Positions 23,601-44,250 of a stretch of 64,000 nucleotides of DNA are shown piece after piece (the first letter of the stretch is position 1; each line of letters begins with the position of its first letter). The notes below the pieces were generated by a model, which saw only the letters and a program-made list of their open reading frames with translations, was not told the DNA's origin and did no database searches. Origin of the DNA: Gammaproteobacteria bacterium (GTDB lineage: Bacteria; Pseudomonadota; Gammaproteobacteria; UBA4575). The position numbers were made by a program, and so were the translations under genes. The stretch lies in NCBI GenBank assembly GCA_965222615.1, contig CBDCUI010000009.1, forward strand, positions 224,001 through 288,000, read 5' to 3'.

Positions 23601-26600
23601 CGCATTGAGCTTTACCGCAGAAGTGCTCGCACCCACCGGTGTGGCCGATGAATACAAGAACACGGCCCAAGTTAGTGCTAGTGATCAAAGTGATCCGGAC
23701 AGTACACCGAACAATGATGATGGCGATCAAAGCGAAGATGATGAAGACAGTGCACTGGTGGTTCCACAAATCGATCCAACCGGTCGTTTTTATTGTGAAG
23801 ATACCGGAGAGATCTTAACCGGTGGTTCGGTTGCATTTAGCTCATCAAACGGTGGTTCTACAACTGATTTCTTAGATGGTACTACAGGTGAATATCGTTC
23901 TGACTTTATCGCGCCTGCGGCGGGTACGATGTTTACCATGGCGATTACACCGCCACCAGGAACCATTTTAAGTGTGACTAGACCTGTAAACCCAACTCCC
24001 ATTGCGCCCGCAGGAGCAGTTCCGGTAAATCTGGGTAGTACTGAACAGGGTAATACTGGATTCTTAGTTGATTTCAGTGCAGCTGCAAATACACCTTGGT
24101 ATGACACATTTACGATCGATCCGGGTGATCCCATTATTATCAATAACAATATACCCGTAACGAATTGTGCAACCTCATCTATTTTGTTACGCAAAACTGC
24201 AGCTGAGCAAAGTGTAACAATTGGAAGTCTTGTTCAATATGAGATTAATGCACGTGTGTTACTGCCATTACCGCTTACGGATATCGATATTGTCGATAAC
24301 ATTCCTGGCGGGTTCGTATATGTTGCAGACTCTGCAATTATTATTCGCGCCGGTGCGGATGGTGAGTTAAATACTATTGACGATGTAGTAACGAATGCCA
24401 TAGTTACTGGAACCGATCCAATTACCTTTGAAGACATTGATTTTGCAGCTGGTGAAGAGCTAATTATTCGTTATTTCTTGCAAGTTACTTCGGGTGTGGT
24501 TGAAGGGCAATATGAAAATACTGCTCAATGCTTTAATCAAGGTAACTTAGCGGTTTGTAACCAAGCGGTTGCTTCAGTAGAAGTATCACAAGACCCGATT
24601 CTGGAGAAAACGACCATTATCGGCAAAGTTTGGGATGACATCGATCAAGATGGTTGGCAAGACAATGCCAATGCAAGCAATATCGTTGTGAAACATTTAA
24701 ATGATGATAGTGAAGGAATAAATATTGAATCGATACCTGGACGTTCTGATCAGTTGGATCCTATTGAATTACACCAGGAAAATGTAACAGTCGCTATGTC
24801 AAATGATCATAACAATCCGGTTGTACTGACTTCGGCTGAAGGCACACGATTGGTTATCGATCAAACCGGTAAAGTCACTGCAGAACACACCGGCATGAAA
24901 GCCAAGGGCTTAACTGGGCAAGATTTGCAAGTGGCCAGCGTAATTGATAACGGCAAAATGCACCTTACTATTACAAACCATGGACTACATGAAGCCGGAA
25001 TACCTGGTGTTCGTATTGCCAGCGTTGAGGGTTTATTAGTTGAAACGGATGAATATGGTCGCTATCACTTAGCCGATATCGATGGTGGCCGTTGGGAACG
25101 CGGACGCAATTTTATACTTAAAGTAGATCCTCTAACTCTACCTGAAGGCGCTGAATTTACTACAGAAAATCCCCGTGTCTTACGTATAACACAAGGATTG
25201 ATGAGTAAAATCAACTTTGGCGTGAAATTACCCAAGCAGGATGCCGTATATAAACTGGAAATGCAGGAGCAACATAAGGCCTCTAGACACGAAATCGTCA
25301 AAACGCGTGAACTCGATGGAATTGTAGACCCAATTCATTTTGCGTCGGGTAAAGCCGATATCACGGATACATATATAGCTAAATTAGAGCGTGCCATTAG
25401 TAGTCTTTCCGACAAGGACAATGTGCGTATACACGTAGTTGGCCATACCGATACACAATTGTTAACCCCGGCAACTGCTGCGAAGTTTAAAGATAACTAC
25501 GGGCTCTCCATAGCAAGGGCAGAAGAAGTGGCCGCCAAATTGCGTTCTGAGCTGGGACTTAAAGTAACTTCGGTAGAAATTTCAGGCCGAGGCCCAGATG
25601 AACCTGTTGCCAGTAATGACAACCCAGAAGGCATGGCTAAAAACCGCAGAGTAGAGACGAGTTTACTTTTTGATGAAAGAATATCGAAAAAAATGGTGGC
25701 GACCAGCTATGAAAAAATCGCCGCGGGGCGTAGTGATGTATTACTACCTAAAGGTGGACGAGTTTGGGTGGTGGAAGATCCCACCAAGATTGATCTAAGA
25801 CTGGACGTTATTTTCCATAGTGCGGTTGCAGTTGATAAAGGTGGGAAAGTCTCTGCTGTAAGCTTTAATAACTACAGCAATTACTTGGCTTACATTGATC
25901 GCTGGGAAGTAACGATTTATAACGACTCCGATGTTGATTTAATTTATCCAATTGCAAAGGTCTCAGGTGAGCGCAGCAATTTCTTGGCAATTCATGAACT
26001 GCAACTAGATGCCAGCACAAAACTAGACGATTCACTGTGGTACGTTTTGCGCGTACACGATTCCAAAGGACGCATGGATGAAACCGTGCCCAAACATCTT
26101 GCAGTCGTAGATGCGGAGCTTGCAGGAATGGAGCCAATATCAGAAGAGCAGCAAAGAGAGTTAAGTAGAAGCATTGTTGGTAAAAACAGCCTGAGTAATC
26201 AAAGAATCCCCATACATGGGTCTCGTGTGCGCTTAAATGGCAGTGGTATTGATGCTGGTTATATATTGAGAATTAACGATCTCAGCATTCCAATTTCAGA
26301 AAAAGGCACATTTGCGACAGAACAACACTTACCAATCGGTACGCATAGCTTTGAGGTGAATGTAAGTGATGGCATTGACGATACAACCAGCAGAAATTTG
26401 AACGTAGATGTAAAAGGTAAGCATTTCTTCATGGTTGGTTTGGCTAATTTAACGGTTGGTGAAAATAGTTTATCGGGAAGTGTTGAACCTCTGGGCGAAG
26501 ACGATCACTTTGATGAAGATGTATGGATAGATGGCCGAGTTGCGTTCTATTTGAAAGGCAAAGTGAAAGGCAAGTATTTAATTACTGCACAACTGGATAC

Positions 26601-29142
26601 TACTGAAGATGAATTGCGTAATTTGGGGGATCGTTTAGATGATGAGGATCCACGTAGATTGTTCCGCAAGCTGGATCCTGATAAGTACTATGCCGTATAT
26701 GGTGACGACTCCACTACGATAGATGATACCGATAGCCAGGGAATGTTTTATCTGCGCGTCGATTGGGATAAAAGTATGGCATTGTGGGGCAATTACAATA
26801 CCGATATCACCGGTACCGAGTTTTCGCAATACAACCGCAGCTTATATGGTGCCAAGCTTGAACACCGAAATGTCGACACCACTGAATTTGGTGATCACAA
26901 ACATGAAGTGCATGCATTTGCATCTCAAGCACAAAACGTTGCCGCGCACAATGAATTTGTTGCCACAGGTGGCTCCCTTTATTACTTGCGCGATACCGAT
27001 ATTGTTCAGGGTTCTGAAAAAGTTTGGGTGGAAGTTCGTAATCGTGATACCGAACAAGTTACAGAAAACATCGCGTTAAAACACGGCCAAGATTACGACA
27101 TCGATTATTTGCAAGGACGTATTATTTTAACGCGACCGCTTTCCCAGGTAGATATCGGTAATGGTCCAAACATTATTAAAGACCAACCTTTAGAAGGTGA
27201 TGATGTATTCCTATTAGTGGATTACGAATACAACCCAGAATCATTTGATGCAGACGACGTAACTGCCGGACTACGTGGCAAAGCCTGGTTAAATCAATAC
27301 ATTGGTATTGGTGGTACCTATATCAATGAAGAACGCAATGGCGAAGACTATGAGTTAAAAGGTGCTGATGTAACTCTGAAGGCAGGCAAGGGCACTTACA
27401 TCAAACTTGAATATGCAGAAAGTGATGCCAACCAAACTAACCAAAACTTTATTTCAAATAATGGTGGAATTAACTTTAACAACAAGACCAATACACTAGA
27501 CGAAAACAGTGATGGTGAAGCCTTAGGGATAGAAGCACGAGTTAATTTTGCAGAGATGACAGGCAATAAGCAGCAAGGTTATCTCATGGCGTGGTGGAAA
27601 GATCGTGATGCAAACTTTTCATCTACCGCGCGTCTCGATGATGGTATTGAAACTACAGATACTGGTTTAGAAGGGGTGTGGCAGGCCACCGATAACTTGA
27701 AGTTAAGTACAAGAATTACCAATTTAGACAAACGCGGTGAAGGTGAGTTTACTGCTGCAAGCATACAAGGTGATTACAGCCTGACCGATCGTTTAACCCT
27801 GGGCGCAGAAATTCGTTACGAAGACGAAGAAGATGATACGGGTCTATTTGAAGATACCGAAGCAACATTGGGTGGCCTCGCGTTGCGCTATAAGTTAACA
27901 CCAGACACCGAAGTCTATGGCAGTGCACAAGCTGTGATTGCGGACGATAACGATTATGAAAATAATGCCGGTGTAACCATTGGTGCCAGTCGTCAACTTA
28001 ATACAAGATTGGCATTAAAAGGCGAAGTTACGACAGGTGATCGTGGTGAAGCGATTGTACTTGGCGGTGAATATGCAGTAACACCGAATACCAATATTAG
28101 TATTAATGCTGGGTTTGGTGAAGGTGCAGCAAGTCAGATCGGTACGAATTATGTCACTGCAAATGGAATGGAGCTTTATGGCAGTTATGCAGTGGATCCT
28201 GATCGCACCGATAGTGGTTCCAATATGTTCACGTTTGGTACCAAACGCAGATTCCAGAACGGTTTAACAATATTTACTGAGAGTCAATTTGGCGAAGGTG
28301 ACGAAGAACAAAGTATCGGCCGTACCTACGGCTTGGATTATGATCTGACTGAACAATGGCGACTTAGTGCATCAATACAAAGTAATGATTTAGATCGTGA
28401 TTTAGGTGATATTGATAGACGTGCAGCTACCGTAGGCGCTAAGTTTAGAAATAAAACGGTTCAGTTTGGTAGTGTGCTTGAATATCGTGAAGATGATGAT
28501 CGCTCAACCGACTTGGATAACACTCAATGGCTTACCAGTAACACCATTGAATGGCAGAAAAGTGAAAACTTGAGGTTGCTGGGTAAACTAGATTTGTCTA
28601 CGACTCATAGCGATAGCAATAAAGGCGATGAAGCAAAATATGCCGAGATCGATCTTGGTTTTGCTTATCGACCTGCAACATATGATCGCTGGAATATTTT
28701 AGGCAAATATACCTTCTTGTATGACTTAGGTAGCAGTGGCCAGGATGATGTGACACCAGAAGAGCGTGCGCACATCTTCTCGCTAGAAGGCATTTATGAC
28801 CTTAATCAAAAATGGGAGCTTGGCGCTAAGTATGCACATCGCGAAGGCGATCTGCGTTTAACACGTGGATCCGGCCCATGGTTTGAATCGGGCGCACATT
28901 TAGCTGTAATTCGATCTCGATACCACTTCATTAAGAAATGGGATGCCTTGTTTGAATACCGTTGGTTGGAAAGTGAAAGCGAAGATGATGAAAAACATGG
29001 CGCTTTAGTCGCGGCATACAGGCACCTAGGCAAACACTTTAAAGTCGGTGCTGGGTATAACTTTACTGACTTTAATGACGACCTTACGGACAACGATTAT
29101 GATAGCGATGGTTGGTTTATAGATATAGTAGGTAAGTACTAA
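20620..29142 (+). CDS. Giant secreted/outer-membrane protein: tandem DUF11 repeats, OmpA-like domain and C-terminal beta-barrel
   Basis: Signal peptide; repeated DLSLxKxV..P.VG..VTF units each ending DPDSTPNNDDGDQSEDDED; OmpA motif HFASGKA...VGHTD...LSIARA...NRRVE; barrel-type C-terminus GWFIDIVGKY. Confidence 0.85.
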   Translation: MRTKDFVSHLLLLISIYALAVSSANSSDSAEVANWQTTFNSVNSSTYVEDRLWTPEIYSRLATADTHSNNNSRSSQSKYHKKRKKRKQADLSLRKSVNNPRPDVGEFVTFTITVKNDGPAGTDYAVADVIPRGYTHITNISKGGHLEGNVITWKHNWIDAGVKQTFSFRALVKEKTGAKDEYKNVAQIIKSNRPDPDSKPNNDDGDQSEDDEDFAIVEPQSNVADFSLHKNVDNRTPNIGDVVTFTISVKNYGPAGGDYDVQDLLPPGFSKISYINRGGILKGNKITWKGQWIGKGETQVFKFRATVNSPKCVADEYKNIAQIIKSNRPDPDSTPNNDDGDQSEDDEDSVVVIPNTDICDTNNADLSLQKTVDNKTPNIGDVVTFKIKVKNDGPSGADYHLEDVVPSGFSNITGITRNGALAGNTITWKRQWIDKGEIQVFKFHTTVNSPKCVASEYKNVAQIIKSNRPDPDSTPNNDDGDQSEDDEDSAAVIPNTNICDIGTSDLSLNKTVNNATPNVGDTVTFSIVVSNAGPDAATNVGVSDIVPVGYSNISNVSNGGSVNGNNISWNVASIASGASVALSFSAEVLAPTGVADEYKNTAQVSASDQSDPDSTPNNDDGDQSEDDEDSASVIPGGSAGVADLMLTKSVDNATPNVGEVVTFSIVVSNAGPDAATNVGVSDIVPVGYSNISNVSNGGSVNGNNISWSVASIASGASVALSFTAEVLAPTGVADEYKNTAQASASDQSDPDSTPNNDDGDQSEDDEDSASVIPGGSAGVADLMLTKSVDNATPNVGEVVTFSIVVSNAGPDAATNVGVSDIVPVGYSNISNVSNGGSVNGNNISWSVASIASGASVALSFSAEVLAPTGVADEYKNTAQVSASDQSDPDSTPNNDDGDQSEDDEDSASVIPGGSAGVADLMLTKSVDNATPNVGEVVTFSIVVSNAGPDAATNVGVSDIVPVGYSNISNVSNGGSVNGNNISWNVASIASGASVALSFTAEVLAPTGVADEYKNTAQVSASDQSDPDSTPNNDDGDQSEDDEDSALVVPQIDPTGRFYCEDTGEILTGGSVAFSSSNGGSTTDFLDGTTGEYRSDFIAPAAGTMFTMAITPPPGTILSVTRPVNPTPIAPAGAVPVNLGSTEQGNTGFLVDFSAAANTPWYDTFTIDPGDPIIINNNIPVTNCATSSILLRKTAAEQSVTIGSLVQYEINARVLLPLPLTDIDIVDNIPGGFVYVADSAIIIRAGADGELNTIDDVVTNAIVTGTDPITFEDIDFAAGEELIIRYFLQVTSGVVEGQYENTAQCFNQGNLAVCNQAVASVEVSQDPILEKTTIIGKVWDDIDQDGWQDNANASNIVVKHLNDDSEGINIESIPGRSDQLDPIELHQENVTVAMSNDHNNPVVLTSAEGTRLVIDQTGKVTAEHTGMKAKGLTGQDLQVASVIDNGKMHLTITNHGLHEAGIPGVRIASVEGLLVETDEYGRYHLADIDGGRWERGRNFILKVDPLTLPEGAEFTTENPRVLRITQGLMSKINFGVKLPKQDAVYKLEMQEQHKASRHEIVKTRELDGIVDPIHFASGKADITDTYIAKLERAISSLSDKDNVRIHVVGHTDTQLLTPATAAKFKDNYGLSIARAEEVAAKLRSELGLKVTSVEISGRGPDEPVASNDNPEGMAKNRRVETSLLFDERISKKMVATSYEKIAAGRSDVLLPKGGRVWVVEDPTKIDLRLDVIFHSAVAVDKGGKVSAVSFNNYSNYLAYIDRWEVTIYNDSDVDLIYPIAKVSGERSNFLAIHELQLDASTKLDDSLWYVLRVHDSKGRMDETVPKHLAVVDAELAGMEPISEEQQRELSRSIVGKNSLSNQRIPIHGSRVRLNGSGIDAGYILRINDLSIPISEKGTFATEQHLPIGTHSFEVNVSDGIDDTTSRNLNVDVKGKHFFMVGLANLTVGENSLSGSVEPLGEDDHFDEDVWIDGRVAFYLKGKVKGKYLITAQLDTTEDELRNLGDRLDDEDPRRLFRKLDPDKYYAVYGDDSTTIDDTDSQGMFYLRVDWDKSMALWGNYNTDITGTEFSQYNRSLYGAKLEHRNVDTTEFGDHKHEVHAFASQAQNVAAHNEFVATGGSLYYLRDTDIVQGSEKVWVEVRNRDTEQVTENIALKHGQDYDIDYLQGRIILTRPLSQVDIGNGPNIIKDQPLEGDDVFLLVDYEYNPESFDADDVTAGLRGKAWLNQYIGIGGTYINEERNGEDYELKGADVTLKAGKGTYIKLEYAESDANQTNQNFISNNGGINFNNKTNTLDENSDGEALGIEARVNFAEMTGNKQQGYLMAWWKDRDANFSSTARLDDGIETTDTGLEGVWQATDNLKLSTRITNLDKRGEGEFTAASIQGDYSLTDRLTLGAEIRYEDEEDDTGLFEDTEATLGGLALRYKLTPDTEVYGSAQAVIADDNDYENNAGVTIGASRQLNTRLALKGEVTTGDRGEAIVLGGEYAVTPNTNISINAGFGEGAASQIGTNYVTANGMELYGSYAVDPDRTDSGSNMFTFGTKRRFQNGLTIFTESQFGEGDEEQSIGRTYGLDYDLTEQWRLSASIQSNDLDRDLGDIDRRAATVGAKFRNKTVQFGSVLEYREDDDRSTDLDNTQWLTSNTIEWQKSENLRLLGKLDLSTTHSDSNKGDEAKYAEIDLGFAYRPATYDRWNILGKYTFLYDLGSSGQDDVTPEERAHIFSLEGIYDLNQKWELGAKYAHREGDLRLTRGSGPWFESGAHLAVIRSRYHFIKKWDALFEYRWLESESEDDEKHGALVAAYRHLGKHFKVGAGYNFTDFNDDLTDNDYDSDGWFIDIVGKY
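22131..23757 (+). repeat. Four near-identical 414-bp intragenic tandem repeats (DUF11 units); three more diverged units lie upstream
   Basis: Period of 414 bp (shadow ORFs at 22485, 22899, 23313). Confidence 0.9.
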
Positions 29143-29653: not shown

Positions 29654-29677
29654 CCCAACTTCTGCCTAATTGTTGGG
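29654..29677 (+). other. 24-bp inverted-arm recombination-like site s1 (CCCAACTTCT gcct AATTGTTGGG)
   Basis: Same 10-4-10 layout as s2-s5; homology to the right element ends here. Confidence 0.6.
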
Positions 29678-29787
29678 TAATGATCTTAATACCCATATAA
29701 TGTCCGCTAACGACCCAATGTATGGACACCTCCAAGCTAAGCAATTAGTTTGTGTGGTGTTAGAAACACAAAAGAAGGAGTCCATAC

Positions 29788-30831
29788 ATGAAACATCTAA
29801 ACATAGTTGGCGTTGATTTAGCAAAAAACGTAATCCAAGTTTGCGTGATGCGCGCGCAGCGACAAGAAGTAATCAATCGTTCCTATAGTCGTACTAAATT
29901 TGCAGTATTTCTCGTTAAACAACAGCGCAGTGTCATCGCCTTTGAAGCATGTGCCAGTAGTCATTATTGGGCACGAAAAGCCAAAGCATTGGGGCATACC
30001 ATCAAAATCATTCCGGCAAAAGCGATCACACCGTATCGTCAAGGCCATAAAACCGATATCAATGATGCCCGCGCGATCGCTGAAGCGGCGAGCCGTCCCC
30101 ACCTACTTGAAGCCCCATTAAAGAGTGTTGAACAACAAGGCTTGCAAGCCGTACAACGTTCAAGAGAGCTTTTGGTACAAGAGCGAACCGGTCTATCCAA
30201 CCACATCCGTGGCATATTGATGGAATTTGGCATCGTCATTCCTAAAGGCTTTGCCGCCTTGCATCAACAGATACCCGAGGTACTAGAAGATGGGGAGAAC
30301 GAGCTACCCGATCTATATCGCCCGACGTTACAGATATTGTACGAACGCTTAGTGCAACTCAAAACAACCATCACGATACTTGATCAACAAATTGCCGCCC
30401 TCATCAAACAACATCCAGGTTGCGAAACGCTCATGAAGATAGAAGGTGTGGGCCCAATCAGTGCGATATTACTGTATGCCAGCCTTGGTAGTGGCGATGC
30501 GTTTAGCCAAGGTAGACAATATGCGGCGTACTTAGGGTTAACGCCCAAGCAATACAGCAGTGGCGGGAAAACGAATCTTATTGGGATAAGTAAAAAGGTT
30601 GCGAATAAACGTTTGCGCTCCGTACTCATTCAAGGAGCACGTGCTTATGTGCACAAGCTCAAAGAACCGAAAAGCCAAAAAGATCGCTGGCTGCTGGCAC
30701 TGATTGAACGTGCCGGCTATGGCAAGGCGGCGGTAGCGTTAGCCAACAAAAATGTGCGCACCGCATGGGCCATGCTGACCCGGGGGACAACGTACAATAA
30801 ACAACATACAACCACGATGCACATTGCATAA
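29788..30831 (+). CDS. IS110-family DEDD transposase/recombinase
   Basis: GVDLAKN, FEAC, KTDINDARAIA, GLTPKQYSSGGK, ALANKNVR. Confidence 0.95.
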   Translation: MKHLNIVGVDLAKNVIQVCVMRAQRQEVINRSYSRTKFAVFLVKQQRSVIAFEACASSHYWARKAKALGHTIKIIPAKAITPYRQGHKTDINDARAIAEAASRPHLLEAPLKSVEQQGLQAVQRSRELLVQERTGLSNHIRGILMEFGIVIPKGFAALHQQIPEVLEDGENELPDLYRPTLQILYERLVQLKTTITILDQQIAALIKQHPGCETLMKIEGVGPISAILLYASLGSGDAFSQGRQYAAYLGLTPKQYSSGGKTNLIGISKKVANKRLRSVLIQGARAYVHKLKEPKSQKDRWLLALIERAGYGKAAVALANKNVRTAWAMLTRGTTYNKQHTTTMHIA

Positions 30832-31085
30832 AAACAAAACCAAGACACTACGTTACATAAAAGTGTAGAAGAGGTTAGGCAAGTAGACCTAGGTAAAGAA
30901 TAAAGAGATTCGCTTCGATGAAACCTGCTCCGCTTTGAGGATAAATAGAATCCATCGACCCAATGAGGCATCGAAGTGCGCATACATACAGGGCTAGAAG
31001 ATCGCAACTTCACGAAAAAGCCGAATATACATCTGCGTCTTTTTCTTTATCAATTTCTGTTTGCTAAACTGGCGGTGTCCATATA
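30832..31085 (+). ncRNA. Putative bridge/seek RNA of the IS110 element
   Basis: Non-coding right end contains TCCGCTTTG (30929-30937) and CGACCCAA (30956-30963), which match opposite strands of the target, and CATACAT/ATATACA, which match the IS ends. Confidence 0.65.
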
Positions 31086-31106
31086 CAAAGCGGACAAATA
31101 TAAATT

Positions 31107-31304
31107 ATGCTTTGTGATTATATACTTTGGTTTCTTATGGCCGCTTTTCTGATCGTGGTTTTAAAGCACAGTTATGTTTTATATATGTATTTAGTCAGAA
31201 AAGAAAGCATATCTATGACAGATAGTGCATCTAAGGTCTATTCGCTATTACTGTTATTAGCGGTTGCCCTGAGCTTGATTTGCCAATTAAACATTATTGA
31301 TTAA
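31107..31304 (+). CDS. Small two-TM hypothetical protein (cassette-like ORF between palindromes)
   Basis: 65-aa hydrophobic ORF filling the interval between two palindromic sites almost exactly. Confidence 0.55.
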   Translation: MLCDYILWFLMAAFLIVVLKHSYVLYMYLVRKESISMTDSASKVYSLLLLLAVALSLICQLNIID

Positions 31305-31311
31305 ATGTCCG

Positions 31312-32735
31312 TATATGGCCTCCCTCCGTTTGCAAGCAAAATATTCAATGACAAAGTAGAGTCGACTGCACACGTATATTCGGCCTCTATTGATAGCAAG
31401 CGCTATTGATAGCAAGCGTTGATGCTGGGCCAGGATGGTGTATTCGCACCTAAGCACCCAATCGCTATTACGTACTCGAAGTACCTGGACATTCACGGGT
31501 TACGCTTAGGTCGGTTCGACCGGTTTGCCATCTAATAAATTACTTTGCAATCGTGGTAGATAATCCTCTTAAGTGTAAGTACATGTAATTTCGTTAATTG
31601 TTTTATTTCACATAAGCGCAAAGTTCGGATCATATTCACTTTCATCTCGCAACATTGCAAATGCCATACGCACGGTTTTATTCGCCAGTGCGACAGCGGC
31701 CACATTCGTATGTTTGGTTTTAGAAAGATGCGTGACCCACTGACTCAATCGATCCTCTTTATGTTTCGCTTGCGAGACGACAGCCCTTGCTCCGTGAATG
31801 AGTAAGGTGCGCAGATAGGCATCGCCGCGTTTACTGATTTCCAGTAAACGCTCTTTATTGCCTGAACTGTGTTGTCTGGGGGTTAAGCCTAAGGCTGCCG
31901 CCATCTGGCGACTGCTCTTGTATTGTTTGGCATCGCCTACCGTGGCAATCAATGCTGTGGCCACCATCGGCCCGACCCCTCGTAGCTGTTGTAGACGCTT
32001 GGTGACTTCGTTTTGTTTGGCCTGTTGTTCAATCGTTTGATCAAGTTCTTTTACACGCGCATCTAATGTTAGTACGTCATGTTGAAGTCCCTGTAGTAAA
32101 GAACGAAAGTGTGGCGTTAAGCCATTCTCTCCGTCTTCTAACCAAGTCGGTATTGCAGCGCGTAATCGATGTAACTGTTGGGGTGCGACTAAGCCATATT
32201 CACTCACTAAGCCTCGAATCTGATTGGCTTTAGCGGTGCGTTGTTGCACCAAAGTATTACGCACACGATGCAGGGCCTGAATGTCTTGCTGTTCAATACT
32301 TTTGATCGTGACAAAGCGCATGTTGGGGCGACTCATGGCTTCGCAAATGGCTTCGGCATCGTTGGCATCATTCTTGTTGCTCTTTACATAAGGCTTTACA
32401 AACTGGGGTGCAATCAATTTCACCACATAGCCTCGTTGTTGTAATACACGAGCCCAGTGGTGTGCACCCGAACAGGCCTCCATGCCAATCTCACCACCCG
32501 GTTCAACATGCTCCACTAATACCTTAAGCCACTTGCTTCGAGATAAGCGTCGTTTGAATACGCACTTTCCCGTGCGATCCACCCCGTGTAGTTGAAAAAC
32601 ATGCTTTGCCAAATCCACACCCATGCGTGTAATCTTGTTCATGTATGGTCTCCTTTATTCAAAGTAACTGGTTCTATCGCTTCCAGTATGGGCACATTAC
32701 GATGCCGTTTAAAGTTGAGGGAGGCCATACCATTG
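31312..32735 (-). mobile_element. IS110/IS1111-type element B, copy 1
   Basis: IRs TATGGCCTCCC/GGGAGGCCATA; reconstructed target AATGTCCG|CTATTGGACGAAAGCAGACAT; has a 16-bp tandem duplication (CTATTGATAGCAAGCG) absent from copy 2. Confidence 0.9.
31608..32642 (-). CDS. IS110-family transposase
   Basis: GVDLAKHVFQ, MEACSGAH, KNDANDAEAI, GLTPRQHSSG. Confidence 0.95.
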   Translation of the reverse strand: MNKITRMGVDLAKHVFQLHGVDRTGKCVFKRRLSRSKWLKVLVEHVEPGGEIGMEACSGAHHWARVLQQRGYVVKLIAPQFVKPYVKSNKNDANDAEAICEAMSRPNMRFVTIKSIEQQDIQALHRVRNTLVQQRTAKANQIRGLVSEYGLVAPQQLHRLRAAIPTWLEDGENGLTPHFRSLLQGLQHDVLTLDARVKELDQTIEQQAKQNEVTKRLQQLRGVGPMVATALIATVGDAKQYKSSRQMAAALGLTPRQHSSGNKERLLEISKRGDAYLRTLLIHGARAVVSQAKHKEDRLSQWVTHLSKTKHTNVAAVALANKTVRMAFAMLRDESEYDPNFALM

Positions 32736-32816
32736 CTATTGGACGAAAGCAGACATAATTGAGGACAAATCAGGTTGGAATCAACAAACTACAAACATAA
32801 AATGACTGCTTACGAC

Positions 32817-34047
32817 TGCCGATTCAATTGATCACCGCAACACTTTATCTTAAGTAACAAAAAAGATGGAGTGTGAAGGATGGGCTATCGAACACGCATT
32901 TATTATAGCGAAGCACAAAAACAGGTGATGTGGGATCGCTGGCAGCAAGGTGATTCTCTCCACACTATTGCGCGCCTTTTTAATCGTGGGCACTCATCGA
33001 TACGACGGATACTTGCAGAAACAGGTGGCATTCGCCCTCCTCAACGAACACGATCAGGCTTCGCACTGACGTTATCGGAACGCGAAGAAATTTCTCGTGG
33101 ACTCGCACGGAATGTATCTTTGCGATCGATTGCTAAACAACTAAAGCGTTCACCTTCCACCATCAGTCGCGAGATTCAGCGCAATGGCGGCATTGCGACA
33201 TATCGCGCGAATGAAGCGGAACAAGCTGCGTGGGATCGGGCGCGCCGTCCTAAAACGTGTAAACTCGCTAGGAACAAAGACTTGTGTCATGCCGTAGCAA
33301 CCAAGTTGCAATTACATTGGTCGCCGGAGCAGATTGCGGGTTGGTTAAAACGCACCTATCCTAATGATGAGAGTAAGACCGTGTCGCATGAAACGATTTA
33401 TCGCAGTTTGTTCATTCAAGCCCGCGGAACCCTGAAAAAAGAGTTACTTGCGTATCTGCGCACGCAACGGACTTTACGTCAGTCAAAGAAAGCCAGTTTG
33501 AAAAACCAAGGCTTAGGTCAAATTAACCATGCGGTCTCCATTCGACAACGTCCGGCATCGGTGGAAGATCGTGCCGTACCGGGACATTGGGAAGGTGATC
33601 TCATTGCAGGCTCAAACAACAGTTATATTGCCACCTTGGTCGAACGACATACACGCTATGTCATGCTAGCCAAAGTAAAGAATAAAGACACGAAGAGTGT
33701 CATCAATGCACTTATCAAGCAAGCGAAGAAATTGCCGAATGAGCTCTACAAATCGTTAACCTGGGATCGCGGTAAAGAGATGGCCGATCATCAACGCTTT
33801 ACCTTAGCGACCGAAATCAAAGTCTACTTTTGCGATCCACAAAGTCCGTGGCAACGGGGTTCAAATGAAAATACAAATCTACTACTTAGACAGTACTTTC
33901 CAAAAGGAATGGACCTGTCTAACATTCATCAGAATCGATTGAATGCAGTAGCAAGACAATTAAACGAACGACCTAGGAAAACACTAGAATTTGAAACACC
34001 AGCAGAAAAATTTAACCAATGTGTTGCAGCGATCGGTTGAGATCGCA
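32817..34047 (+). mobile_element. IS30-family element with 2-bp TSD (AC), inserted in a palindrome
   Basis: IRs TGCCGATTCAATTGATCACCGCAACAC / GTGTTGCAGCGATCGGTTGAGATCGCA; reconstructed target TGACTGCTTACGACCCAAAGCGGACA. Confidence 0.9.
32880..34040 (+). CDS. IS30-family DDE transposase
   Basis: WSPEQI, SHETIY, GHWEGDL, TWDRGKEM, PWQRGSNENTN. Confidence 0.95.
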   Translation: MGYRTRIYYSEAQKQVMWDRWQQGDSLHTIARLFNRGHSSIRRILAETGGIRPPQRTRSGFALTLSEREEISRGLARNVSLRSIAKQLKRSPSTISREIQRNGGIATYRANEAEQAAWDRARRPKTCKLARNKDLCHAVATKLQLHWSPEQIAGWLKRTYPNDESKTVSHETIYRSLFIQARGTLKKELLAYLRTQRTLRQSKKASLKNQGLGQINHAVSIRQRPASVEDRAVPGHWEGDLIAGSNNSYIATLVERHTRYVMLAKVKNKDTKSVINALIKQAKKLPNELYKSLTWDRGKEMADHQRFTLATEIKVYFCDPQSPWQRGSNENTNLLLRQYFPKGMDLSNIHQNRLNAVARQLNERPRKTLEFETPAEKFNQCVAAIG

Positions 34048-34081
34048 ACCCAAAGCGGACATTTCTAACAATCATAAATAC

Positions 34082-34683
34082 ATGACTAAAACGAAAATAA
34101 TTGTATTAAGAATTTTAGCTATACTAGCTATAGTTGAAATACTAATTTTAGTATTCGCTGGATTTCAGCAAATATCGGGCACTAAAGAATTATTTGAAAG
34201 CTTTGAAGGTCCACTTCCACTAATAACAACTGTTTATCTAGTACATAAAAGTGTAGAAGAGGTTAGGCGAGATTCGCTTCGATATAAATATTGGATTCAA
34301 TTTCTGTTTGCTAAACTGGCGGTGTCCATATACTAAAACGAAAATAATTGTATTAAGAATTTTGCTATACTAGCTATAGTTGAAATACTAATTTTAATTC
34401 GCTGGATTTCAGCAAATATCGGGCACTAAAGAATTATTTGAAAGCTTTTCCACTTCCACTAATAACAACTGTTTATCTAGTCACGTATAAATATTGGATT
34501 CTACTGGCAATATTCCCTCTATTTATTTTTGTTAAATCGTTTAGGGAAAAATTTAAATCACGTAATTCATCAAGTCCATTTGTTTCGTTGCTTATTGCAT
34601 TTATTATTATTGGGATACTAATATTTGTAGGAATTATATTTGCAATGTATGCGCCTATTTGGGAATTGTCTAATAAGGCTTAA
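34082..34683 (+). pseudogene. Membrane-protein cassette with GspF/PilC-like motifs, interrupted by a scrambled duplication
   Basis: Joining 34082-34240 to 34481-34683 gives a contiguous protein of about 120 aa (...LFESFEGPLPLIT...IFAMYAPIWEL). The intervening DNA is IS110 end fragments plus an indel-ridden copy of the gene's 5' part. Confidence 0.5.
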
Positions 34684-34704
34684 GTGATGATATTTTTATG
34701 ACCG

Positions 34705-36112
34705 TATATGGCCTCCCTCCGTTTGCAAGCAAAATATTCAATGACAAAGTAGAGTCGACTGCACACGTATATTCGGCCTCTATTGATAGCAAGCGTTGAT
34801 GCTGGGCCAGGATGGTGTATTCGCACCTAAGCACCCAATCGCTATTACGTACTCGAAGTACCTGGACATTCACGGGTTACGCTTAGGTCGGTTCGACCGG
34901 TTTGCCATCTAATAAATTACTTTGCAATCGTGGTAGATAATCCTCTTAAGTGTAAGTACATGTAATTTCGTTAATTGTTTTATTTCACATAAGCGCAAAG
35001 TTCGGATCATATTCACTTTCATCTCGCAACATTGCAAATGCCATACGCACGGTTTTATTCGCCAGTGCGACAGCGGCCACATTCGTATGTTTGGTTTTAG
35101 AAAGATGCGTGACCCACTGACTCAATCGATCCTCTTTATGTTTCGCTTGCGAGACGACAGCCCTTGCTCCGTGAATGAGTAAGGTGCGCAGATAGGCATC
35201 GCCGCGTTTACTGATTTCCAGTAAACGCTCTTTATTGCCTGAACTGTGTTGTCTGGGGGTTAAGCCTAAGGCTGCCGCCATCTGGCGACTGCTCTTGTAT
35301 TGTTTGGCATCGCCTACCGTGGCAATCAATGCTGTGGCCACCATCGGCCCGACCCCTCGTAGCTGTTGTAGACGCTTGGTGACTTCGTTTTGTTTGGCCT
35401 GTTGTTCAATCGTTTGATCAAGTTCTTTTACACGCGCATCTAATGTTAGTACGTCATGTTGAAGTCCCTGTAGTAAAGAACGAAAGTGTGGCGTTAAGCC
35501 ATTCTCTCCGTCTTCTAACCAAGTCGGTATTGCAGCGCGTAATCGATGTAACTGTTGGGGTGCGACTAAGCCATATTCACTCACTAAGCCTCGAATCTGA
35601 TTGGCTTTAGCGGTGCGTTGTTGCACCAAAGTATTACGCACACGATGCAGGGCCTGAATGTCTTGCTGTTCAATACTTTTGATCGTGACAAAGCGCATGT
35701 TGGGGCGACTCATGGCTTCGCAAATGGCTTCGGCATCGTTGGCATCATTCTTGTTGCTCTTTACATAAGGCTTTACAAACTGGGGTGCAATCAATTTCAC
35801 CACATAGCCTCGTTGTTGTAATACACGAGCCCAGTGGTGTGCACCCGAACAGGCCTCCATGCCAATCTCACCACCCGGTTCAACATGCTCCACTAATACC
35901 TTAAGCCACTTGCTTCGAGATAAGCGTCGTTTGAATACGCACTTTCCCGTGCGATCCACCCCGTGTAGTTGAAAAACATGCTTTGCCAAATCCACACCCA
36001 TGCGTGTAATCTTGTTCATGTATGGTCTCCTTTATTCAAAGTAACTGGTTCTATCGCTTCCAGTATGGGCACATTACGATGCCGTTTAAAGTTGAGGGAG
36101 GCCATACCATTG
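34705..36112 (-). mobile_element. IS110/IS1111-type element B, copy 2
   Basis: Transposase identical to copy 1; reconstructed target TATGACCG|CTATTGGCCGAAAGCGGACAT. Confidence 0.9.
34985..36019 (-). CDS. IS110-family transposase
   Basis: Protein identical to that of 31608-32642. Confidence 0.95.
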   Translation of the reverse strand: MNKITRMGVDLAKHVFQLHGVDRTGKCVFKRRLSRSKWLKVLVEHVEPGGEIGMEACSGAHHWARVLQQRGYVVKLIAPQFVKPYVKSNKNDANDAEAICEAMSRPNMRFVTIKSIEQQDIQALHRVRNTLVQQRTAKANQIRGLVSEYGLVAPQQLHRLRAAIPTWLEDGENGLTPHFRSLLQGLQHDVLTLDARVKELDQTIEQQAKQNEVTKRLQQLRGVGPMVATALIATVGDAKQYKSSRQMAAALGLTPRQHSSGNKERLLEISKRGDAYLRTLLIHGARAVVSQAKHKEDRLSQWVTHLSKTKHTNVAAVALANKTVRMAFAMLRDESEYDPNFALM

Positions 36113-36163
36113 CTATTGGCCGAAAGCGGACATCAAGGTTAGCCAATGAAGAGAATAGGGCGC

Positions 36164-36187
36164 GTTAACTTTTTAATAATAGTTGGG
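36164..36187 (+). other. 24-bp site s2 (GTTAACTTTT taat AATAGTTGGG), the empty allele
   Basis: Left arm and spacer match s4; right arm and downstream sequence match s3. Confidence 0.65.
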
Positions 36188-36235
36188 GAGTCATAGATTG
36201 GCCGAGAGGGGATTTATATAGTTCTTTATTTTATA

Positions 36236-36652
36236 ATGTATGAATGGGAATTAATGCTGCTAAAAAAACGTGCCAAAGAACGTGGTCGAATTGCTAGGCA
36301 AGAGCTCTTACTGGCCGACGGTGGCTGCATTAGTGCCGCGGATGCTGCAAAGCAACTGGGAATCACGGAGGTAGAGCTTGAGAGAATCCGTAGTTCTAAT
36401 CAGTTATTGGCTGTTGATGTTGATAGCAAGTTTCAATATCCGATTTGGCAATTCGAGGGAGCAAATTTAGTTCCCGGATTACAAGAAATATTAGAAATAC
36501 TTGGCGATGATGATCCGTGGTCGAATTTCATCTTTTTGTTGGGTCACGACTATGCAGTAGATGGATGTCGTCCAATCGACAAACTTCGTGTAGGTGATAT
36601 TGATTCAGTCAAACGCGCTGCACATACGTACGGTCATCATGGTGCAGTTTAA
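36236..36652 (+). CDS. HTH + Xre/MbcA/ParS-like antitoxin-type protein (left copy)
   Basis: AADAAKQLGIT HTH, YPIWQF, DGCRPIDKL. Comparison with the right copy suggests a true start at 36244 and an extra A in an A7 run. Confidence 0.6.
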   Translation: MYEWELMLLKKRAKERGRIARQELLLADGGCISAADAAKQLGITEVELERIRSSNQLLAVDVDSKFQYPIWQFEGANLVPGLQEILEILGDDDPWSNFIFLLGHDYAVDGCRPIDKLRVGDIDSVKRAAHTYGHHGAV

Positions 36653-36675
36653 ATAAAGCAAATAATAGGTAATTT

Positions 36676-36858
36676 ATAAACAATTCAATTCAACGCATAC
36701 CTGGAATTGCTGGAAGCAAACCATTGCTCAAGTGTGTATGCGTCCCCACAAAAATAATTGCAGAGCGATTTAAAGCCGGCGAATCAATTAGTGCGCTTGC
36801 AGTGGACTATGGTTGTAGGAACACAGAAATAGAAGAAGCGATTAGATTCGAACTTTAG
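36676..36858 (+). CDS. DUF433-like small protein (no canonical start codon visible)
   Basis: IQRIPGIAGSKP...IIAERFKAGESISALAVDYG...IEEAIRFEL; the diverged mirror copy keeps the frame with many synonymous changes. Confidence 0.55.
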   Translation: MNNSIQRIPGIAGSKPLLKCVCVPTKIIAERFKAGESISALAVDYGCRNTEIEEAIRFEL

Positions 36859-36879
36859 TCACAAATCTCCCGAAATAAA

Positions 36880-36992
36880 CCTGAATTCCAGGTACTTACT
36901 TTTACTCCCGAACTTACACTCAAGTACCGAATTTTACTCCTGGGGGACTGATGTTTACTCCCGAAAAGTGCTGGGTATTACTAGGAATTACA
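36880..36992 (-). repeat. Tn7-like transposon end (terminal TGT plus tandem TnsB-type binding sites)
   Basis: Reverse complement reads TGTAATTCCTAGTAATACC followed by several GGAGTAAA repeats; homologous to the end at 37110. Confidence 0.8.
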
Positions 36993-37037
36993 ATAGTCTC
37001 GAACCGATAAGGTGATTAACCATCTGGTTAATCGTTT

Positions 37038-37065
37038 TCTTAACATAATATATATTATGCGAAGT
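37038..37065 (-). other. dif: XerC/XerD dif site
   Basis: Minus strand ACTTCGCATAA-TATATA-TTATGTTAAGA has the 11-6-11 layout and matches the dif consensus (E. coli GGTGCGCATAA TGTATA TTATGTTAAAT). Confidence 0.88.
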
Positions 37066-37244
37066 TAAATATGTGGGTGCCTAATAGAATTTGACGTCTC
37101 TTAAACATGTGTGATTCTTAGTAAAACCAAGCACTTTTCAGGACTAAAAGTCAGTACTTCAGGAGTAAAACTAAGTACTTGAGTAATTAATAAGACTAAA
37201 ACTAGATACCTGAATTCATGATCTATTTCTAAAGATTTGTGACT

Positions 37245-37427
37245 TTAAAGTTCGAATCTGATGGCTTCTTCGATATAAGAGTCTTTACAGCCGTAATCCA
37301 TAGCCAGCTCAGTAATCGATTCGCCGGCTTTAAATCGCTCTGCAATTATTTTTGTGGGGACGCATACACACTTGAGCAATGGTTTGCTTCCAGCAATTCC
37401 AGGTATGCGTTGAATTGAATTGTTTAT
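37245..37427 (-). CDS. DUF433-like small protein (mirror copy)
   Basis: ...AGESITELAMDYGCKDSYIEEAIRFEL*; homologous to 36676-36858. Confidence 0.55.
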   Translation of the reverse strand: MNNSIQRIPGIAGSKPLLKCVCVPTKIIAERFKAGESITELAMDYGCKDSYIEEAIRFEL

Positions 37428-37450
37428 AAATTACCTATTATTTGCTTTAT

Positions 37451-37858
37451 TTAAACTGCACCATGATGACCGTACGTATGTGCAGCGCGTTTGACTGAAT
37501 CAATATCACCTACACGAAGTTTGTCGATTGGACGACATCCATCTACTGCATAGTCGTGACCCAACAAAAAGATGAAATTCGACCACGGATCATCATCGCC
37601 AAGTATTTCTAATATTTCTTGTAATCCGGGAACTAAATTTGCTCCCTCGAATTGCCAAATCGGATATTGAAACTTGCTATCAACATCAACAGCCAATAAC
37701 TGATTAGAACTACGGATTCTCTCAAGCTCTACCTCCGTGATTCCCAGTTGCTTTGCAGCATCTGCGGCATTAACGCAGCCACCGTCGACTAGCAAAAGTT
37801 CTTGTCTGGCTATTCGACCACGTTCTTTAACACGCTTTTCTGCAGCACTAATTCCCAT
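37451..37858 (-). CDS. HTH + Xre/MbcA/ParS-like antitoxin-type protein (right copy)
   Basis: Near-identical to 36236-36652, with an intact N-terminus. Confidence 0.65.
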   Translation of the reverse strand: MGISAAEKRVKERGRIARQELLLVDGGCVNAADAAKQLGITEVELERIRSSNQLLAVDVDSKFQYPIWQFEGANLVPGLQEILEILGDDDPWSNFIFLLGHDYAVDGCRPIDKLRVGDIDSVKRAAHTYGHHGAV

Positions 37859-37910
37859 CTCAGTATTATAAAGAATTAATCAAGTCCCCTCTTCGTTGTA
37901 TGTATCACTC

Positions 37911-37934
37911 CCCAACTATTGCACAAAAGATGGG
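37911..37934 (-). other. 24-bp site s3 (CCCATCTTTT gtgc AATAGTTGGG), junction of the recombinase module
   Basis: Right arm and continuation AATAGTTGGGGAGT are identical to s2. Confidence 0.65.
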
Positions 37935-38055: not shown

Positions 38056-38706
38056 ATGTTAGAAACATCAACATCCGAAGTGAAAAACTTCAATCACCCA
38101 GCTCCTGGGTCGACCATAAAAGTCGAACCAATTCGAACTGTTCAAGCGATTCACAAAATTAAAACCATGCTTGAACCTAATCCGCGTAACTATTGTTTAT
38201 TCGTTCTTGGGATTAATACCGCATTTCGAGCTTCTGAATTACTTTCAATAAAGATTGGACAGGTTAAATATTTAAATCCAGGAGATCGGTTAGAAGTTAA
38301 ACAACCAAAAACGAAAAAGTATCGATCCGTGACAATCAATCAGTCAGCTCATGATGCGATACGTCGATTAATTATAGAAAAAGATATAGAAGCTCTCAAA
38401 AAAAGAAACTTGAATATCTCTGATGACGATGCATTTCTATTTACTGGCCAACGCGGATCGTCAGCTCTTAAGGTTTCAACTTTAAACAATATGGTTAAGG
38501 ATTGGTGTAGAAAAGTTAATCTGAAAGGTAATTTTGGTAGTCACACTCTACGAAAAACCTGGGGATTTATGCAGCGCAAGAAGCAAGACACCCCTATTCC
38601 TTTATTGATGCAAGCATTAGGTCATGCAACTCAAAGACAGACTATGGAATATTTATGCATTCAAGAAAAAGAAATTGAGAATGTTTATACAGCAATGGAA
38701 CTATAG
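38056..38706 (+). CDS. Small (catalytic-domain) tyrosine recombinase
   Basis: Catalytic residues present: R (NTAFRASELL), K (QPKTKK), HxxR (SHTLRKT), H (LGH), Y (TMEYL). Confidence 0.9.
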   Translation: MLETSTSEVKNFNHPAPGSTIKVEPIRTVQAIHKIKTMLEPNPRNYCLFVLGINTAFRASELLSIKIGQVKYLNPGDRLEVKQPKTKKYRSVTINQSAHDAIRRLIIEKDIEALKKRNLNISDDDAFLFTGQRGSSALKVSTLNNMVKDWCRKVNLKGNFGSHTLRKTWGFMQRKKQDTPIPLLMQALGHATQRQTMEYLCIQEKEIENVYTAMEL

Positions 38707-38827
38707 TAGTGGCTAGGATTTATACAACCTTTCAAAGCTATATATTATTCTATGATGTATCCATATACTTTATATAGAATAATGTTACGTTTACTCCTAA
38801 TGGTGGTGCGCATAATGAGGGTTAAAA

Positions 38828-39832
38828 ATGGCACACGGTAGATTGCTCAGACAACTCATTCGTGCTGGTGTTAATGCGCCCGGAGAAGAATTTCGTGAGG
38901 TAGCCGAAAAGGTTATTCGCGAAGAACGTGAAAAAAAACATCATTTACTAGCTAATGATCTAGAACGGATTCTGTACGGCGAAAGTAATGATGAAGCACG
39001 TACCCTCTTACCACTATCGCTACCTGAAGTGCCAAAGGATCGAGAGCGACATATACCACTTTTAGAAATTCGCGAACCAGTTCGTTCTTTCGCAGACATT
39101 GTTCTTACCAAAGACAACCGTGAGATACTCGAACATGTTTTGCAAGAACAGGGACGGCGTGATGTGCTTGGCTCTTATGGTTTGAAACCTGCCAATCGTT
39201 TACTATTCTGCGGGCCACCTGGATGTGGAAAGACCTTAGCTGCAGAAGTATTAGCGACCGAGCTTGGTTTACCACTACTCTTAGTGCGCTTTGATGCGGT
39301 TGTGTCATCCTATCTTGGTGAAACTGCAGCAAATTTACGAAAAGTGTTTCAGTACCTTGAAACTGGACGTTATGTTGTTTTGTTTGATGAGTTTGATGCG
39401 ATAGCAAAAGATCGTGCGGACGCATCTGAGCATGGTGAATTACGAAGGGTTGTAAATGCATATCTGCAAATGATGGATAGCTATCGTGGCAATTGTTTGT
39501 TACTTGCCGCATCAAACCATGAAGGTTTACTTGATAAAGCCCTTTGGCGACGATTTGATGAAGTACTTTTCTATCGTCGCCCAACAACAGAAGAAATTAT
39601 TGATTTGGTTGCTGTAAAACTTCGAGGTATTCGCTATAACTTTGAAACAGAAAACGAACCGACTATCGCTAACTTCAATGGGATGGCGCACGCTGACATT
39701 GAGCGTGTATTGATCCGCGCAATTAAACATATGATCTTATCGGGTCGTGAATTTTTAAGCACTGACCACATCGCACTTGCCCTAGAACGAGAACGGGAAA
39801 GACGATCTGTCGCTGAACATAAGTCGATTTAA
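38828..39832 (+). CDS. AAA+ ATPase (IetA-like partner of an S8 protease)
   Basis: GPPGCGKT, SSYLGETAANL, LFDEFDAI, LDKALWRRFD. Confidence 0.85.
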   Translation: MAHGRLLRQLIRAGVNAPGEEFREVAEKVIREEREKKHHLLANDLERILYGESNDEARTLLPLSLPEVPKDRERHIPLLEIREPVRSFADIVLTKDNREILEHVLQEQGRRDVLGSYGLKPANRLLFCGPPGCGKTLAAEVLATELGLPLLLVRFDAVVSSYLGETAANLRKVFQYLETGRYVVLFDEFDAIAKDRADASEHGELRRVVNAYLQMMDSYRGNCLLLAASNHEGLLDKALWRRFDEVLFYRRPTTEEIIDLVAVKLRGIRYNFETENEPTIANFNGMAHADIERVLIRAIKHMILSGREFLSTDHIALALERERERRSVAEHKSI

Positions 39833-39837
39833 CAGTA

Positions 39838-42147: not shown

Positions 42148-42233
42148 AGTTTCGAATTTCTGCGTGCAAACTCTATGATGAAATCGACAAGATATGCAGT
42201 ATCGTTTTTAACCATACCACACGTATTTTCACC

Positions 42234-42257
42234 CCCAACTTTTATTAAAAAGTTAAC
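42234..42257 (-). other. 24-bp site s4 (GTTAACTTTT taat AAAAGTTGGG)
   Basis: Lies within the inverted repeat 42234-42302 of 36118-36187; bounds the recombinase-AAA-S8 module. Confidence 0.65.
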
Positions 42258-42302
42258 GCGCCCTATTCTCTTCATTGGCTAACCTTGATGTCCGCTTTTG
42301 GC

Positions 42303-42552
42303 TGTGGTCTCAATAGGTCGATGCAACACTTTGAAATAGAGTGAAAAAAGGCTGCAAAAGCTAAGAGAAATGCAATTACATCAACATCTTAAGAGTAGAT
42401 CAATAAAAGATGGCTCGAAGCAAGTAATAATGCAGTATTTAATGTAACCGGTTCATCCAAAAACAACTCAACACTAAATGGTCATCCGTTTGAGTCAACC
42501 TCTTTATTACTAAAAGTTTAGCAAGGTGTTGCATTGACCGATTGAATCGGCA
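42303..42552. mobile_element. 250-bp non-autonomous IS30-ended element in a palindrome
   Basis: Ends TGTGGTCTCAATAGGTCGATGCAACAC and GTGTTGCATTGACCGATTGAATCGGCA resemble the IS30 IRs at 32817/34047; no transposase. Confidence 0.75.
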
Positions 42553-42589
42553 GTCGTTAGCGGACATTATATGGGTATTAAGATCATTA

Positions 42590-44238: not shown

Positions 44239-44250
44239 TATTTGATAATG

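Follow-up and report, generated by a model that had tools for sequence, protein, structure and literature searches.

A 64,000-nt stretch of the genome of a gammaproteobacterium of the lineage UBA4575 (GenBank assembly GCA_965222615.1, contig CBDCUI010000009.1, positions 224,001 to 288,000; hereafter the window) holds an array of four 26-bp palindromic sites, each split by an insertion sequence (IS), with two small open reading frames (ORFs) between them. On balance, we lean towards the view that these sites belong to a family of boundary sites resembling repetitive extragenic palindromic (REP) sequences, and that gene modules are exchanged there without recourse to the integron machinery. The sites come in two kinds with a preferred order, lie clustered between genes in a replication-polar layout, are targeted by IS elements and form the ends of identical modules. 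They failed tests for membership among integron attC sites, REP sequences linked to REP-associated tyrosine transposases (RAYTs) and dif sites.

Four IS-split palindromes and two ORFs in the window

Excision of three IS1111-type elements and one IS30-type element (window 29701-36132) rebuilt four 26-bp palindromes, and the joined halves read as claimed in the initial annotation, which had been made from the sequence alone. Along the strand, the array runs A1, 65-aa ORF, B1, 47-nt spacer, A2, 120-aa ORF and B2, with both ORFs in the same direction. It lies 900 bp from the only dif-like site of the genome (37038-37065), on the far side of which lies a second copy of the locus with a single site. 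The features are as follows.

29657-29700, plus strand: left flank X, a spacer-like leader (GTTGGGT ... TATAAT) directly 5′ of A1
29701-29715 and 31086-31096, plus strand: site A1, split by the 1370-bp IS1111-type element 1 (29716-31085; transposase gene 29788-30831)
31107-31304, plus strand: 65-aa ORF, hydrophobic, no Pfam family, starting 10 nt past A1 and ending 1 nt before B1
31306-31311 and 32736-32755, plus strand: site B1, split by the 1424-bp IS1111-type element 2 (31312-32735, minus strand; transposase gene 31608-32642, minus strand)
32756-32802, plus strand: B-to-A spacer of 47 nt with a conserved GGTTGGAATC block and a weak sigma-70-like arrangement (TTGGAA-17-TAAAAT)
32803-32816 and 34048-34061, plus strand: site A2, split at its centre by the IS30-type element (32817-34047; transposase gene 32880-34040), which is flanked by a 2-bp AC duplication
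34082-34683, plus strand: 120-aa ORF, hydrophobic, no Pfam family, interrupted by 34210-34448 in the assembly
34210-34448, plus strand: 239-bp segment made up of a duplicate of 34085-34242 and fragments of the 3′ end of element 1
34699-34704 and 36113-36132, plus strand: site B2, split by a second copy of element 2 (34705-36112; gene 34985-36019, minus strand)
36133-36188, plus strand: right flank Y, repeated inverted at 42233-42288
42233-42610, minus strand: single-site copy of the locus on the opposite side of dif, consisting of Y′, site halves 42289-42302 and 42553-42566, a miniature inverted-repeat transposable element (MITE) and X′

The 65-aa ORF and the spacer, announced as about 45 bp, were thus recovered. 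The claim of a co-oriented ORF of about 120 aa was borne out in part: the frame is broken by 239 bp in the assembly, whereas contigs of two public runs (X1 and X4) join 34209 straight to 34449, with no other differences, and contain it intact. Because the 239-bp segment is missing from the contigs of both runs, we regard it as an assembly artefact or a minority variant. An IS-free version of the array was not seen in the public-run contigs, where most joints fall at repeated half-sites, with sides of 20-38 nt; in a second sample, a 9.6-kb contig carried the same IS load as the assembly.

The right-hand locus had been described as having the same flanks around a single palindrome, which proved correct, in inverted order. 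Positions 29657-29714 match 42610-42553 (58 nt, 98%), and 36119-36188 match 42302-42233 (70 nt, 97%). Its palindrome is split by a 250-bp MITE with IS30-like ends (42303-42552). Left flank X, which recurs inverted at 42567-42610, resembles the consensus of the spacers between B and A sites.

Two kinds of site with a conserved centre

Sites A1 and A2 are of kind A (TGWCYGCT-WACGACCCAA-AGCGGACA) and sites B1 and B2 of kind B (TGWCYGCT-WTTGGMCGAA-AGCGGACA), with arms common to both. Among close neighbours less than 200 nt apart, B was followed by A in 71 cases, while BB occurred nine times, AA twice and A followed by B never. The B-A spacers measure 57 nt in 21 cases, 47 nt in nine and 33 nt in four, and hold a conserved GGTTGGAAWC block.

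Stem pairs were counted in 420 distinct site instances. Positions 3/24 were A,A in 175, T,A in 168, A,T in 13 and T,T in 12 instances; positions 5/22 were C,G in 222, T,G in 94, C,A in 59 and T,A in 18. No compensatory change was found at these two variable stem positions, and the remaining stem positions are near-invariant and hence uninformative. The left arm is degenerate, and the centre and right arm are almost invariant. Since the arms vary independently and the right arm and centre are conserved, the site is probably read as a specific sequence, and the pattern agrees better with a sequence-specific reader than with a signal that is purely structural. Hairpins of single sites reached −7.3 and −7.5 kcal/mol (z-scores −4.1 and −3.3), a moderate stability that applies to single-stranded folding, and no sign of selection on base pairing was seen. 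No Rfam family matches the sites.

Clustered, intergenic arrays in other genomes

A degenerate 26-mer search with up to two mismatches found the motif in 16 of 41 related genomes, with 1-235 matches each and ten in the source genome. The reversed motif, used as control, gave no match in any of the 41 genomes, so the matches are not due to chance. In the source genome (3.1 Mb), about ten intact sites are left, in a few clusters. Its largest site array (G000:C7:813540-822884) runs off the end of contig C7 within an IS1111 copy, and contig C8 opens with a similar IS-laden array (G000:C8:1-4700); such repeats probably caused these contig breaks.

Site-rich genomes include those of a relative with a complete 2.76-Mb chromosome (G006, 235 matches) and of G019 (180 matches). 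In G006, the sites are gathered in some twenty arrays and are co-oriented. We derived layout statistics from nine of these arrays (94 sites, 67 intervals). With ORFs called crudely as the longest non-overlapping frames of at least 60 aa, 33 of the 67 intervals held one ORF, 9 none, 14 two, 4 three and 7 four or more; one-gene spacing is therefore modal, not strict. The median interval was 838 bp. Site centres fell within ORFs in 7 of 94 cases, compared to 12,357 of 18,000 random positions (69%) in the same spans. Alphaproteobacterial and Woeseiaceae arrays were alike, with one ORF in 21 of 35 intervals. Scattered repeats lacking one-gene spacing, the outcome that the initial annotation had set against its own proposal, are accordingly not what these clusters display.

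The array genes are of mixed accessory character, including regulators, redox enzymes, RRM proteins, metal-handling proteins and many products with no assigned function. A scan of 102 array products yielded one transposase and no tyrosine or serine recombinase. In three G006 arrays (L167, L169 and L174), genes for a molybdopterin oxidoreductase, an FAD_binding_3 protein and an Oxidored_FMN protein are each split into two adjacent ORFs, which suggests pseudogenes inside the arrays.

An exact 21-mer of kind A occurred at more than 136 loci among the matches listed. The record titles name Gammaproteobacteria (including Thiotrichales, Woeseiaceae, Xanthomonadales-type genera, Halomonadaceae), Alpha- and Betaproteobacteria, Nitrospina, Gemmatimonadales and others; these records span 39-67% G+C, and the loop letters are identical across bacterial classes. 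In an even sample of 400 other genomes across the phylum, an exact 16-mer was present in 12 (1-3 copies each), versus one control match. Judged by sequence matches, this patchy yet far-flung distribution fits what would be expected of something carried by mobile DNA.

Site orientation follows replication

Taking dnaA (585 kb) and dif (1,912 kb) of G006 as reference points, 166 of 199 sites point with replication (A, 95/116; B, 71/83). In this orientation, the site strand as written is the lagging-strand template. Of the 295 ORFs in these arrays, 191 run with replication. The window conforms to the rule, with plus-strand sites to the left of dif and a minus-strand site to its right.

Mobile elements occupy fixed positions in the sites

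Among the blast copies or fragments of four elements in the whole source genome, 20 of 21 have site halves at their ends, in agreement with the initial claim that two IS families (IS1111/IS110 and IS30) use the sites as targets. Element 1 was found in A sites in all six cases, always after position 15 (two of these sites are degenerate, and a contig end truncates one copy). B sites held element 2 or its relative of 78% identity, element 3, in six of six cases, always after position 6. Both full copies of the IS30-type element sit at a site centre, and the one exception to the pattern is a 367-bp IS30 fragment with no site. The MITE was located at the palindrome centre in 6/6 cases (five full copies, one partial).

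Elements 1 and 2 encode DEDD and Transposase_20 proteins (PF01548, PF02371). They have subterminal repeats (ATGGACACC/GGTGTCCAT and ATGGCCTCCCTC/GAGGGAGGCCAT) with extensions of 6/3 and 7/3 nt, produce no target duplication and possess a long non-coding region after the gene. We assign them to the IS1111 type because both are DEDD-transposase elements with subterminal inverted repeats; the features that define this group, and its RNA-guided target choice, are treated in sections of PMC11187229. The IS30-type element combines an HTH_38 plus rve transposase with the AC duplication and central insertion in a palindrome, and a preference of IS30 for palindromic targets is mentioned in a passage of PMC1525189. 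IS targeting of REP palindromes and attC sites as such is already established, according to parts of PMC1525189 and PMC11187229 (see also PMC11208160).

In the non-coding region of element 1, TCCGCTTTG (from 30929) equals the bottom strand of the target across the insertion point, and CGACCCAA (from 30956) equals the top strand across the same point. The two matches, 9 nt and 8 nt long and 27 nt apart, would fit RNA-guided target choice as in IS1111 elements; 9 of 200 shuffles equalled the longer match. For element 2, the matches between non-coding region and target were no better than chance (77/200 shuffles).

Identical modules end at the sites

To look for exchange, we scanned 389 kb of G006 arrays (199 sites) for duplicated segments of at least 150 bp and at least 93% identity, counting an end within 35 nt of a site as lying at the site. 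This gave 16 duplicated segments, and 28 of their 64 ends lay at a site, most within 5 nt, versus 905 of 20,000 random positions (4.5%). In three of the segments (884, 496 and 494 bp), each present at two loci with 99.8-100% identity, every one of the four ends falls at a site. The two copies of the 884-bp module are 100% identical, with identity that starts just past the left arm of A and stops at the last base of B; the A left arm at the module start differs between the two copies. In the few informative junctions, where site copies differ, the switch falls between site positions of about 10 and 21, i.e. at the centre.

Furthermore, locus 2,237,541 (minus strand) of G006 fuses a gene also found at 1,770,824 to a gene also found at 1,332,702. 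The two genes meet at a site, on either side of which 250 nt are 100% identical. In G001, which belongs to the same genus, a 4.8-kb array of about seven cassettes lies between genes that are syntenic with C9:996,730-998,271 and 1,005,388-1,008,758. At the equivalent locus of the source genome there are other genes, with one partial MITE inside the remnant of a site, and two of the G001 cassettes have relatives elsewhere in the source genome.

According to the reading that we favour, the sites would be the borders of small gene modules that stand in co-oriented arrays within the variable part of the chromosome. The modules would undergo duplication, relocation and replacement, with breaks falling inside the sites; for this reason, the array appears to behave in a cassette-like manner without integron machinery. 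The site itself would be the crossover point, and exchange would be carried out by a factor acting in trans or by a replication-linked process. In the source genome, most sites have been invaded, by IS1111-type elements between positions 15 and 16 of A or 6 and 7 of B, and by IS30-type elements and MITEs at the centre.

Several observations weigh against this reading. In a tblastn search against all DNA compared in the analysis, the two window ORFs gave only self-matches, and movement of these two genes was thus not seen. Of the duplication ends, 36/64 lie away from recognised sites, and the ORF calling behind the spacing counts is crude. A strict rule with A at the 5′ end and B at the 3′ end of a module had to be rejected: modules bounded by A...B, B...A and A...A occur alike, and a strict two-site exchange rule therefore fails. 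Polarity is weak in the source genome, where on contig C9 two loci to the left of dif are on the plus strand and, to its right, three are on the minus and four on the plus strand, as judged by eye; this mixture may reflect IS-driven rearrangement. The 26-bp sites and the B-spacer-A units of about 110 bp could also serve ordinary homologous recombination. Lastly, none of the recombinases considered (IntI, the Y1 and Y2 transposases, serine recombinases, IS110 and the tyrosine recombinase of the window) follows site abundance. The initial proposal that genes are gained or lost at the hairpins as in a cassette array is upheld for exchange in relatives, but its cassette likeness is an analogy, since the searches identified no recombinase.

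Alternative explanations

Outside the window, at G000:C9:388000-398262, the source genome carries a chromosomal integron, in which an IntI gene heads a cassette array with ten or more classic attC sites. This IntI scores 490.5 bits (cut-off 265) and lies about 140 kb away. The alternation of co-oriented sites and small ORFs looks cassette-like, and some IS1111 members target attC (sections of PMC11187229); the window array might then be a cluster of attC sites lacking its own integrase (CALIN), made of unusual attC and served by this IntI. We consider this highly improbable. The genuine attC sites of the genome are 59-90 nt long with YTAAC...GTTAKGY ends, while paired RYYYAAC/GTTRRRY boxes are absent from the 26-bp sites and their immediate flanks, as the initial annotation had stated. 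A home-made covariance model (R1, not that of IntegronFinder) built from seven attC sites of the source genome recovered these seven by construction and found untrained attC in the same integron (E 1.9e-5 at L218:11611; 0.024) and attC beside the IntI genes of other genomes (L014, E 0.0012; L017, E 0.0093). In the window it gave no match at E up to 10, so the palindromes do not score as ordinary attC; such a score was the other outcome named beforehand as contrary. It also gave none in nine of ten site arrays (L194-L197, L169, L170, L039, L029 and L176), with two weak matches in L167 (E 0.059 and 5), and a crude box-plus-fold scan returned six sites in the genuine integron and none at the palindromes. 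An IntI above the cut-off was present in six of the 41 genomes, and in only 2 of 25 genomes of the family; it does not follow site number and was not found in G006, G007, G009, G014, G019 or G022 (63-235 site matches). By boxes, model and IntI distribution, attC identity was rejected. Classical REP sequences or REP doublets (REPINs) spread by a RAYT (Y1) transposase would also be short intergenic palindromes of two variants, present by the hundreds in some genomes and targeted by IS110/IS1111 elements (part of PMC1525189). The source genome does contain one Y1 gene (PF01797), which was detected in three of five genomes tested, but not in G006 or G019, the two site-rich genomes among them. No site lies within about 1.5 kb of any of five Y1 loci, covariation is missing from the stems, and the same sequence recurs across bacterial classes. 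REP families are normally lineage-specific. We rejected RAYT-REP identity on the Y1 distribution, the site-free Y1 loci and the missing covariation, and regard it as improbable. The chance that the sites are Xer sites like the pdif of Acinetobacter dif modules, with modules moved by host XerC/XerD, seems similarly slim. It would account for the 11-6-11-like arrangement, in which the left arm is degenerate and the right arm conserved, and for the proximity of the window array to dif. XerC/D are the sole recombinases expected in every site-rich genome; dif modules, too, are small gene units with 28-bp sites and a dedicated IS family (parts of PMC6449649 and PMC10132070). However, dif-like sites of the source genome and four relatives have no evident likeness to the A or B arms, and the present sites are co-oriented in arrays rather than alternating.

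The main rival, and a serious one, invokes a conserved regulatory repeat that undergoes homologous recombination or template switching. Here, the sites would be REP-like expression signals, with B as a terminator or 3′ stabiliser, a weak promoter in the spacer and A as a 5′-end hairpin, and exchange would be incidental, via RecA or template-switching homology. As a full account, we find it possible, if rather doubtful. In the source genome, start codons follow A after 10-35 nt, and stop codons precede B by 1-25 nt. A co-oriented start follows closely after B in 3 of 39 cases, and B lies within 60 nt after a stop codon in 13 of 39; by contrast, in G006 a co-oriented start lies within 60 nt of only 16 of the 53 A sites. 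Conserved in the spacer are TTGGAW and, 17 nt on, an A/T-rich hexamer that abuts A, but the promoter match is weak (8-9 of 12 positions), and a scan with the sigma-70 consensus reported none in the B-A spacer of the intact array. The folding energies given above agree with a hairpin signal, whereas the two variable stem positions without compensatory change and the lack of an Rfam family do not. Loops that are identical to the letter across classes at 39-67% G+C speak against it as well, as a mere hairpin would not need such conservation. Replication polarity could follow from transcription direction, and the finding that no recombinase tracks the sites is in line with this explanation.

Other candidate partners were tried and rejected. 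IS91/Y2 rolling-circle transposases were present in none of the 16 family genomes searched, including the source, and in 1 of 25 overall. A serine resolvase or invertase, considered for a likeness of the arms to a resolvase half-site and for the 12-2-12 layout, occurred in 13 of 41 genomes, unrelated to site number. The 216-aa tyrosine recombinase of the window had only weak matches elsewhere. IS110-type recombinases, considered as the shuffling enzyme, were detected in 10 of the 41 genomes and not in any of seven that are site-rich. RRM RNA-binding proteins, which recur in arrays and were considered as hairpin readers, are encoded in 21 of 24 family genomes, including site-free ones.

Comparison with known systems

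The REP sequences and bacterial interspersed mosaic elements (BIMEs) of Escherichia coli and Pseudomonas are targets of IS110/IS1111 and other IS elements, such as IS621, ISPpu9/10 and ISPa11, as reported by Tobes and Pareja 2006 (PMC1525189). The present sites resemble them as short, often clustered intergenic palindromes with more than one variant, in which IS elements have a fixed position and orientation and whose repeat is rebuilt by IS removal. Unlike REP/BIME, they lack a RAYT link and stem covariation, keep the same letters across classes, bracket single small genes in long co-oriented arrays, are replication-polar and end duplicated modules. With integron arrays and CALINs they share co-oriented sites, mostly single small ORFs of varied function, duplication and shuffling, and targeting by IS1111-type elements. 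They differ in being 26 bp long and conserved in sequence, whereas attC sites are 55-140 nt long and conserved in structure; they also lack R/L boxes and co-occurrence with IntI, are negative in the attC model, and many of their arrays contain oppositely oriented ORFs.

The dif modules of Acinetobacter plasmids are similar in being small accessory modules with core-type inverted repeats of about 28 bp, shuffling between replicons or loci, and specialised IS elements (portions of PMC6449649, PMC13141974 and PMC10132070). The present sites, on the other hand, are unrelated to the host dif, chromosomal and co-oriented, and come in two kinds in fixed B-then-A order. Neisserial dRS3 and Correia repeats are likewise short inverted repeats at variable blocks, act as integration sites of IS110-like recombinases and contain promoter-like sequences, but are confined to one genus and flank non-coding blocks rather than genes. 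Text searches of the literature, supplements excluded, found no description of the motif: 12-mers of the motif returned primer coincidences, and concept queries returned integron papers.

Genes and repeats around the array

The dif-like site lies at the exact centre of a 1.76-kb inverted repeat (36170-37930) with arms of 594 nt and 94% identity (36264-36857 and 37246-37839). Each arm contains an ORF of 135-138 aa, assigned to no Pfam family, and a DUF433-like fragment, and the inner 370 bp around dif carry repeated TTTACTCC-type motifs on either side. Between this palindrome and the right-hand site, at 38056-42147, the 216-aa tyrosine recombinase stands together with an AAA ATPase and a 769-aa subtilase, a group that may be a mobile or defence module. 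On the minus strand at 42652-47887, TniQ-, TniB/AAA_22- and rve-type genes and an upstream 253-aa ORF of no known family form a Tn7/Tn5053-like transposition module, which ends 42 bp from the X′ flank of the right-hand palindrome. No terminal repeats of this gene set were found, and site-driven insertion of the set could not be demonstrated. To the left lies a 2840-aa ORF (20620-29142), which ends shortly before the array; at 22026-23753, it includes tandem copies of a unit of about 414 bp that are 90-94% identical.

Significance

We tentatively raise the further possibility, which we hold to be rather less likely to be right than wrong, of a third gene-cassette platform beside integrons and dif modules. 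It would be built on a sequence-specific 26-bp site of two flavours, bounding single-gene modules, oriented with the replication fork and shared horizontally across Proteobacteria and beyond, and recombined by an enzyme outside the families tested or by a replication-coupled process.

Should the sites prove to be true points of exchange, a cassette system that current tools miss would let many environmental Proteobacteria build and reshuffle their accessory genes; IntegronFinder and REP/RAYT searches would both overlook such arrays. The convergence of several unrelated mobile elements on a single 26-bp sequence would then be explained as well. As natural targets of RNA-guided IS1111-type elements, the sites are of practical interest for programmable recombination, and their orientation with replication offers a concrete handle on mechanism. 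Even as a new REP-like repeat, a motif conserved across classes to this degree would be unusual and would call for a conserved reader.

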